A stretch of 20,196 nucleotides of DNA, taken from positions 1 to 20,196 of IMG/VR virus record IMGVR_UViG_2563366948_000002. One strand, 5' to 3'. This DNA is from a virus. Taxonomy: Duplodnaviria > Heunggongvirae > Uroviricota > Caudoviricetes. Below the pieces are notes generated by a model. The model saw only the letters and a list, made by a program, of their open reading frames with translations, was not told the DNA's origin and searched no databases. Below, one piece after another: positions 6,998 through 7,662 of this stretch; positions within the stretch are counted from its first letter, which is position 1; each line of letters begins with the position of its first letter. The position numbers were made by a program, and so were the translations under genes.

Positions 6998-7662
6998 TGT
7001 TAAAAATGTCTGCAGCAATGAGTTTGGCTGATATTGATAATGATATTTTTCTTCAGCGTATTAATGCTTCTATTACTCGTGTTAGATTTGCACTTCAATC
7101 GTACGATAATTTCAAACAATTTGTCAGGATTGAACTTGATTCTGCTGTAAAGGAAATAGAAGAGAATTCAAATAAGTTAAACTTCGATTTAACAGAAGAT
7201 CAGCTTACTTTAATTTTATTGGCCAATATCAAAAATAAAGATATGGGCATTGAAGCATTTCATGAAAATAATCAGCGCGGACATTGTGATATTACAATAA
7301 AACTAAAGGATTATATTTGGCATGGCGAAGCCAAAAAACATACATCTTCATATAGTTATTTATTTAAAGGGTATGCTCAACTCACTGAACGATATAGTAC
7401 AGGGACCGTAGACAGCGCAAGTGGTGGATTGATTATCTATACTCGTAATAGAAAATGTAATGAAATGATGAGCAACTGGAAGGCGCATTTAGATAAATTC
7501 GCACCAAGAATTCATGCCTGTAAATCTATAACGATTACTCCTTGTCAAAAAAATCCATTGGTTTTTTATAGCCAGCATGTTCACACAGTTACTCAACTGA
7601 ATTATGAAGTTATTCATTACCCTGTAAATCTATATCATGAGCCTGTAGATCCGGATCTTTAA
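6997..7662 (+). CDS. Hypothetical protein C (221 aa) with a possible PD-(D/E)xK nuclease-like motif
   Basis: ATG overlaps the stop of gene B (TGATG), AGGA SD 9 nt upstream. Segment GHCDITIKLKDYIWHGEAKK gives D98-x12-E111-A-K113. Followed by a terminator. Confidence 0.7.
   Translation: MLKMSAAMSLADIDNDIFLQRINASITRVRFALQSYDNFKQFVRIELDSAVKEIEENSNKLNFDLTEDQLTLILLANIKNKDMGIEAFHENNQRGHCDITIKLKDYIWHGEAKKHTSSYSYLFKGYAQLTERYSTGTVDSASGGLIIYTRNRKCNEMMSNWKAHLDKFAPRIHACKSITITPCQKNPLVFYSQHVHTVTQLNYEVIHYPVNLYHEPVDPDL

Follow-up and report, generated by a model that had tools for sequence, protein, structure and literature searches.

A three-gene cassette lies in the low-GC cargo region of a defective P2-like prophage

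The window (the whole stretch of DNA that was analysed, 20,196 nucleotides in length) is part of an E. coli chromosome carrying a defective P2-like prophage. Genes for an integrase (1-1209), a CI-type repressor (1449-2024), a portal protein (7732-8769) and a large terminase (8766-10532), all on the minus strand, are found together with those for Cox (2144-2365), a tape measure protein, gpD and other P2-like prophage proteins. Two open reading frames of the plus strand join parts of different genes. In the first (2392-2688), a CII-like N-terminus is joined to a DinI-like C-terminus, indicating that the replication region has been lost from the prophage. The second (10675-11367) joins the N-terminus of a head scaffold to the C-terminus of a tail sheath, which indicates, by comparison with an intact relative, that the capsid-to-sheath genes have been lost. 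The defence cargo has been kept in the prophage despite the loss of the replication genes.

This cargo occupies an island (~3000-7700) in which the GC content is ~32-40%, compared to ~55% in the rest of the window, and which contains two units, a DarT/DarG pair and a trio of co-directional genes, A, B and C. DarT (3156-3737, plus strand, 193 aa) and DarG (3742-4713, plus strand, 323 aa, with a macro domain) were both recognised by PADLOC (E values of 2e-36 and 3e-80, respectively) and by Pfam, and form a toxin-antitoxin defence pair upstream of the A-B-C cassette, inside the same low-GC hotspot. A remnant of an IS5/IS1182 transposase, annotated as a pseudogene in strain S40, is located at ~4795-4998. 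DarTG and gene A are separated by a cos-like GC-rich stretch, gcgggcaggcgtggcggggatacgagcgcgcgctcgc (~5180-5300), the reverse complement of which resembles the start of the cloned P2-hotspot inserts (Rousset et al. 2022, Table S2A, PMC9122126). The A-B-C cassette thus lies in the interval from the replication gene region to the portal gene Q, which in P2-like phages is a cos-proximal hotspot. This gpA-gpQ hotspot of P2-like prophages has been described as a reservoir of anti-phage systems (Rousset et al. 2022, PMC9122126).

Gene A (5444..6550, plus strand) encodes a presumed sensor with a predicted RdgC-like fold, of 368 aa when counted from the RefSeq ATG, the start given by the ORF tool being a GTG at 5435. 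Gene B (6563..6997, plus strand) encodes a putative acidic adaptor or regulator domain of ~144 aa that matches phrog_11490; its start is uncertain and could be the TTG at 6551, the ATG at 6563 or the RefSeq start at 6578. Gene C (6997..7662, plus strand) encodes a protein of 221 aa, the predicted PD-(D/E)xK nuclease and effector, and its ATG at 6997, which is also the start of the RefSeq entry (WP_016239485), is interlocked with the stop codon of gene B in the sequence TGATG. The three genes abut or overlap and follow each other in the same direction on the 3' side of the cos-like stretch, and their products are all assigned to PHROG families. Finally, a GC-rich hairpin with flanking T-runs (7702..7727), located between the convergent gene C and portal gene, is likely a bidirectional terminator closing the operon.

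Protein C contains invariant residues of the PD-(D/E)xK type

The original prediction, made from the window alone, was that protein C carries a possible PD-(D/E)xK active site at 7288-7335, composed of D98, E111 and K113 with E86 as a possible upstream acidic residue. Translation of 6997-7662 (plus strand) gives ...NNQRGHC-D98-ITIKLKDYIWHG-E111-A-K113-K..., with D98 encoded at 7288-7290 (gat), E111 at 7327-7329 (gaa) and K113 at 7333-7335 (aaa), so that the three residues and their coordinates are correct. The bare motif is not significant, since a D[ILVM]-x(8-25)-E-x-K pattern is present in 19% of 5,000 shuffles of protein C.

We then looked at the conservation of these residues. A word-indexed search with C recovered 37 clusters, all from Enterobacterales, and in a set of 36 enterobacterial homologues D98, E111, A112 and K113 do not vary. 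An exhaustive profile search recovered 568 representative clusters with E <= 1e-3, 125 of them with E <= 1e-30. When 148 homologues sharing ~27-40% identity with E. coli C were aligned, the only invariant columns were E67, G95, D98, E111, K113, G125 and Y133. A second set of 78 sequences was drawn from every genomic context found, fusions to STAND NTPases included; here D98, E111, K113, G95, H96, W108, Q128 and Y133 are invariant, E67 is present in 77/77 sequences and H89 in 76/78, and an acidic residue, D or E, occupies position 90 in 78/78. The motif triad is therefore invariant in both sets, and G95, H96, W108, G125, Q128 and Y133 are further invariant residues beyond those initially listed. 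The choice of E86 as the upstream acidic residue did not hold, as this position is E in only 7/78 sequences; upstream of D98, acidic residues are conserved at E67/D68 and at H89-[D/E]90.

Protein C is predicted to adopt a restriction-endonuclease-like fold

An AlphaFold2 model of C, built from the 148-sequence alignment, was obtained with a mean pLDDT of 96.3 and a pTM of 0.90. In this model, the N-terminal ~60 residues are helical and are followed by a helix (67-76), three strands (85-88, 99-103 and 106-115), a second helix (119-133) and a fourth strand (142-149), that is, the alpha-beta-beta-beta-alpha-beta core of restriction-endonuclease-like nucleases. The nuclease fold on which the original prediction depended is thus the one modelled for C, rather than a fold of another type.

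The conserved residues can be placed on this core. E67-D68 (codons 7195..7200, plus strand), a candidate first acidic active-site residue, opens helix 67-76, ahead of the first core strand. H89-E90 (7261..7266, plus strand), which could likewise supply a further metal ligand, comes at the end of core strand 1, just after residues 85-88. The G95-H96-C97-D98 segment (7279..7290, plus strand; G95, H96 and D98 in 78/78 sequences) leads into core strand 2, and D98, which would be the 'PD' aspartate, directly precedes strand 99-103. The putative (D/E)xK element belongs to the segment W108-H-G-E111-A112-K113 (7318..7335, plus strand; W108, E111 and K113 in 78/78), and E111 and K113 both fall within core strand 3 (106-115). 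Since the two-residue turn between strands 99-103 and 106-115 implies a hairpin, D98 would lie opposite E111, which, as judged from the strand limits, is consistent with the canonical restriction-fold arrangement. The helix that follows the ExK strand holds Q128-L-T-E-R132-Y133 (7378..7395, plus strand; Q128 and Y133 in 78/78), and these residues appear to resemble the Q...Y motif of RecB-type nucleases.

Comparison of the model with known structures showed that the closest neighbours of C are DNA endonucleases and that the top matches are nearly all DNases (BamHI family, McrC, HamA, NucC and Can2). The structural neighbours also include the toxin CdiA-CT EC869, for which a neutralising immunity protein exists. 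Searches of the PDB with the sequence or the profile of C gave no match, the C profile scored a probability of 0.3% when compared with BamHI by hhalign, no PD-(D/E)xK Pfam family was matched by any of the 148 C-family members, and scans of A, B and C with Pfam, NCBIfam and PADLOC returned no meaningful match. As these sequence and profile searches were empty, the relationship of C to known nucleases is at the level of the fold only. Judged by its model, the C domain belongs to a very familiar enzyme fold, within which it forms a clade that had not been classified before. With a pI of ~5.4-6.8 in most members, C is not basic overall, which adds no extra support for DNA binding and is otherwise unremarkable. 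Fold and conserved residues taken together, the prediction that C is a metal-dependent PD-(D/E)xK-fold nuclease is well supported.

Protein A has a predicted RdgC-like fold and protein B is acidic

Protein A is predicted to have an RdgC-like fold, with 8-10% identity to E. coli RdgC and TM-scores of 0.31-0.38, these low scores indicating a different domain arrangement. It differs from E. coli RdgC also in having no match to the Pfam RdgC family, and sequence and profile searches of the PDB with A returned nothing. In the region of residues ~269-297 (6260-6330 of the window), which is a lower-confidence part of the model, A carries a conserved motif, F-x-T-x-(E/T)-x3-K-x-E-K ... L-R-x-(D/E)-x-(F/Y)-(N/H)-x2-G, whose residues T271, E279, R289 and G297 are invariant across phyla. 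Protein B is strongly acidic, with a pI of 4.2-5.1 and a net charge of -7 to -18 in 23/24 orthologues. From its charge, together with the gene order and the fusions described below, we infer that B acts as an adaptor or as a regulator/inhibitor of C.

B and C form a constant pair behind exchangeable upstream proteins

Loci around distant C homologues were taken from genomes, metagenomes and individual look-ups, and their open reading frames were searched with HMMs of A, B and C. Homologues of A are found in the same genomes and contigs as close homologues of C. The A-B-C order is present in 37 loci, with an A of ~350-380 aa, a B of ~130-148 aa and stop and start codons that usually overlap; these loci span Enterobacterales, many Alphaproteobacteria, one Flavobacteriaceae MAG and one Rickettsiales MAG. 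At 14 more loci, from Vibrio, Aliivibrio, Xenorhabdus, Psychromonas, Oceanisphaera and marine metagenomes, a protein of 355-357 aa takes the position of A. A single Vibrio-type sequence compared by hhalign with the enterobacterial A profile gave a probability of 1%; profile-profile hhalign with diverse A sequences gave 98.8% (E 1e-16), showing that the Vibrio-type protein is a divergent A. The loci outside these two groups are cut by contig ends, or have B fused to another upstream protein. Wherever C is a separate polypeptide, a B domain is encoded immediately upstream, either as a free protein or fused at the C-terminus of another one.

Three types of such fusions were found. In L003 (2765-4764), a phage-like contig that encodes a terminase and a prohead protease close by, a 458-aa protein is made of a TIR_2 domain, two predicted membrane helices and B (residues 323-454, HMM E 5e-45), and its stop codon overlaps the start of the C homologue. 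In Asticcacaulis (L026, 4091-5977), a full-length FtsZ is followed by a long linker and B (484-612, E 1.5e-23). A full-length, three-domain EF-Tu is fused to B (~445-565, E 1e-20) in Litoreibacter (L018, 4251-5969), in Sulfitobacter (L027, 4269-5969) and in a metagenome contig that is 99% identical (L044, 131-1399). The EF-Tu-B and FtsZ-B genes overlap the start of a C-type nuclease gene. GTPase motifs are kept in both types, GHVDHGKT, DCPGH and NKVD in the EF-Tu moieties and GGGTGTG in the FtsZ moiety. These genes are distinct from the housekeeping tuf and ftsZ loci: around them are genes for ATPases (HATPase_c_3 and AAA_21), for an IS110 transposase and for a Gabija-like pair, GajA/GajB. We considered whether EF-Tu-B could be the housekeeping tuf gene of the str operon and rejected it, because HATPase, AAA_21 and Gabija-like genes are found around it instead. 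On another metagenome contig, it is the A-B-C trio that adjoins Gabija-like genes.

The C domain is also found as the C-terminus of proteins of ~700-1200 aa that begin with a NACHT or NB-ARC NTPase and continue with HEAT or TPR repeats. In these STAND fusions, the C domain is the only domain that is neither NTPase nor repeat, and no B domain is detectable. In one other fusion, the C domain is N-terminal to a LexA-like Peptidase_S24 domain (STAND and Peptidase_S24 fusion proteins: P0063, P0095, P0112, P0123, P0128, P0129, P0176 and P0169). The catalytic-type residues are intact in every architecture. Since the STAND-fused versions match the C profile only from ~position 34-43 onward, the first two helices of free-standing C may be the docking site of B.

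A constant nuclease and B combined with a variable upstream part is what one expects of an immune effector that is wired, through an adaptor or regulator, to interchangeable sensors. It had been proposed from the motif that gene C would be the effector of the operon; the context indirectly supports this assignment, as the predicted nuclease is the only effector-type domain in the STAND fusions and the constant partner of varied upstream proteins, the cassette adjoins DarTG in the P2 hotspot, and relatives adjoin Gabija-like genes.

The cassette is a rare and patchy chromosomal element

We found the cassette in 21/5,426 complete E. coli genomes, always on the chromosome. It exists in two sequence variants, one in 9 genomes (>= 99%) and the other in 12 (~85%). 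In the ~85% variant, represented by E. coli KFu019, the neighbour of the trio in place of DarTG is a gene on the opposite strand for a 300-aa hypothetical protein. This difference in neighbouring cargo indicates that the trio moves as its own unit. The trio corresponds to system 91 of the P2-hotspot catalogue, listed without annotation and with 36 occurrences (Rousset et al. 2022, Table S5B, PMC9122126), and is absent from the tables of tested systems of that study. By its location in a hotspot, its patchy distribution and its exchange of domains with known immune proteins, it displays the general features of a defence system.

In the searchable literature, no paper citing the accessions of these proteins or the PHROG identifiers was found, nor anything relevant on RdgC as an anti-phage protein or on EF-Tu and FtsZ decoys, and no mention of the trio was found in the main text of DefensePredictor. 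System 4 of Kaur et al. 2020, in connection with which EF-Tu domains are mentioned, was considered and is a different, caspase-based system.

The cassette differs from known defence systems

The structural neighbours of C include BamHI-like type II enzymes. BamHI, OkrAI, BstYI and BglII share only 6-9% identity with C, without profile-level similarity, and C differs from them by its ~60-residue helical N-terminal region. The neighbours of C in the window are A, B, the portal gene and DarTG, and no methyltransferase was found in the cassette among the fetched loci examined. As free-standing C always comes with a B domain and a sensor-type partner, we conclude that it is not a restriction-modification enzyme.

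PD-(D/E)xK effectors are present in several defence systems, such as Cap4 and NucC of CBASS, HamA of Hachiman, Can2 and Card1 of type III CRISPR, SduA of Shedu and the Avs/STAND nucleases. None of the Pfam or PADLOC models for these effectors is matched by C, which also lacks a domain for sensing nucleotides, such as SAVED or CARF. In typical Avs proteins the nuclease domain is N-terminal, whereas in the STAND fusions of C it is C-terminal, after the repeats.

The cassette is reminiscent of Rst_3HP, a validated system which also consists of three genes without recognised domains in the gpA-gpQ hotspot (Rousset et al. 2022, PMC9122126). Identity between the two was rejected: BLASTP and HMM comparisons of all three proteins with Hp1, Hp2 and Hp3 of E. 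coli E1114 (Table S2A of that study) gave nothing significant, there was no PADLOC match, and the protein sizes differ (~345, 365 and 225 aa in Rst_3HP versus 368, 144 and 221 aa in A-B-C). Positions ~245-387 of the 410 of PDC-S54, a PADLOC candidate, were weakly matched by 33/148 C-family members (best E 1.4e-10). This model is a prediction only, describes a single gene about twice the length of C, has no match to E. coli C itself and is not mentioned in the searchable literature.

Proposed mechanism and alternative explanations

We consider it likely that C is the PD-(D/E)xK nuclease effector of a three-gene anti-phage cassette, with a predicted catalytic centre formed by D98, E111 and K113 together with E67/D68 and/or H89-[D/E]90. 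In the mechanism we propose, the acidic B would bind C, and either hold it inactive or tether it to the sensor. A, whose predicted fold is that of RdgC, a ring protein that binds DNA, would detect an infection cue, perhaps a protein of the phage or a structure in its DNA. C would then be released or activated and would cut DNA, so that the phage would be stopped directly or the infected cell killed. If this is true, an enzymatic function would be given to a hypothetical family of 568 clusters at 50% identity that has no Pfam or NCBIfam model, and an entry of the P2-hotspot catalogue would become a defined candidate defence system of E. coli.

A more speculative extension, which we regard as doubtful, is that the B-C pair is a general 'guard' platform, in which the upstream part can be exchanged and serves as bait by copying a host protein attacked by phages. 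It is based on the fusion of B to a complete EF-Tu in Rhodobacterales and to a complete FtsZ in Asticcacaulis, the partner being mostly a free RdgC-fold protein. A phage factor binding or modifying the bait would release the nuclease, and bacteria would thereby have an equivalent of the integrated decoys found in plant NLRs. No description of an arrangement of this kind with EF-Tu, FtsZ and B was found in the searchable literature. The coupling of B-C to EF-Tu and FtsZ paralogues suggests, speculatively, bait-type sensing. If the prediction is right, the nuclease and its adaptor would provide a natural series in which one effector appears coupled to RdgC-fold proteins, TIR domains, STAND NTPases, and EF-Tu and FtsZ paralogues. 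With this series it could be asked how immune effectors of bacteria are connected to different sensors, and whether phage factors are baited with duplicates of essential host proteins.

The sensor-adaptor-effector reading has to be weighed against other explanations of the cassette. B and C could be a toxin-antitoxin addiction pair that stabilises the mobile element, C being the nuclease toxin and B the antitoxin, with A and the other upstream proteins as accessory components without dedicated phage sensing. B and C are indeed tightly coupled, their genes overlap, B is small and acidic like the immunity proteins of nucleases, and CdiA-CT EC869 is among the structural neighbours of C. However, a labile antitoxin would not usually be fused to large proteins, as B is to EF-Tu, FtsZ or TIR in several lineages; across phyla, the conservation of A equals that of B and C; and the STAND-fused versions have no B at all. 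We therefore find a mere addiction pair improbable; as many toxin-antitoxin pairs are themselves defence systems, this explanation overlaps with that of a nuclease effector in an anti-phage cassette.

Another possibility is that A-B-C is a DNA-metabolism or recombination module of the phage, with C being a structure-specific nuclease or an exonuclease that acts together with the RdgC-like A in the prophage's own replication or recombination. Many phage recombination nucleases are PD-(D/E)xK enzymes, A has the fold of RdgC, a recombination-associated DNA-binding protein, and all three proteins have PHROG families. Yet the hotspot that houses the cassette is hypervariable in its cargo, just 21 of the 5,426 E. 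coli genomes have the cassette, it was kept by a prophage that lost its replication genes, its nuclease also occurs joined to STAND NTPases or next to fusions of TIR, EF-Tu and FtsZ, and copies outside phages adjoin Gabija-like genes. A role in the biology of the prophage itself is thus quite improbable.

With regard to the substrate, C could be an RNase acting on tRNA, rRNA or mRNA, and infection would then be halted by translation shut-down. Some PD-(D/E)xK-fold proteins cleave RNA, and the EF-Tu paralogue that partners C in some lineages hints at a link with translation. We judge this very improbable, considering that the closest structural neighbours of C are DNA endonucleases, that its other top matches are nearly all DNases and that A resembles a DNA-binding protein, all of which favour a nuclease effector that would cut DNA. 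Finally, inactive PD-(D/E)xK domains exist, and C could have a restriction fold without catalytic activity that only binds nucleic acids or serves as a scaffold, but there is hardly any chance of this, as every catalytic-type residue is invariant at ~30% identity and in all architectures, a pattern expected for an active enzyme.
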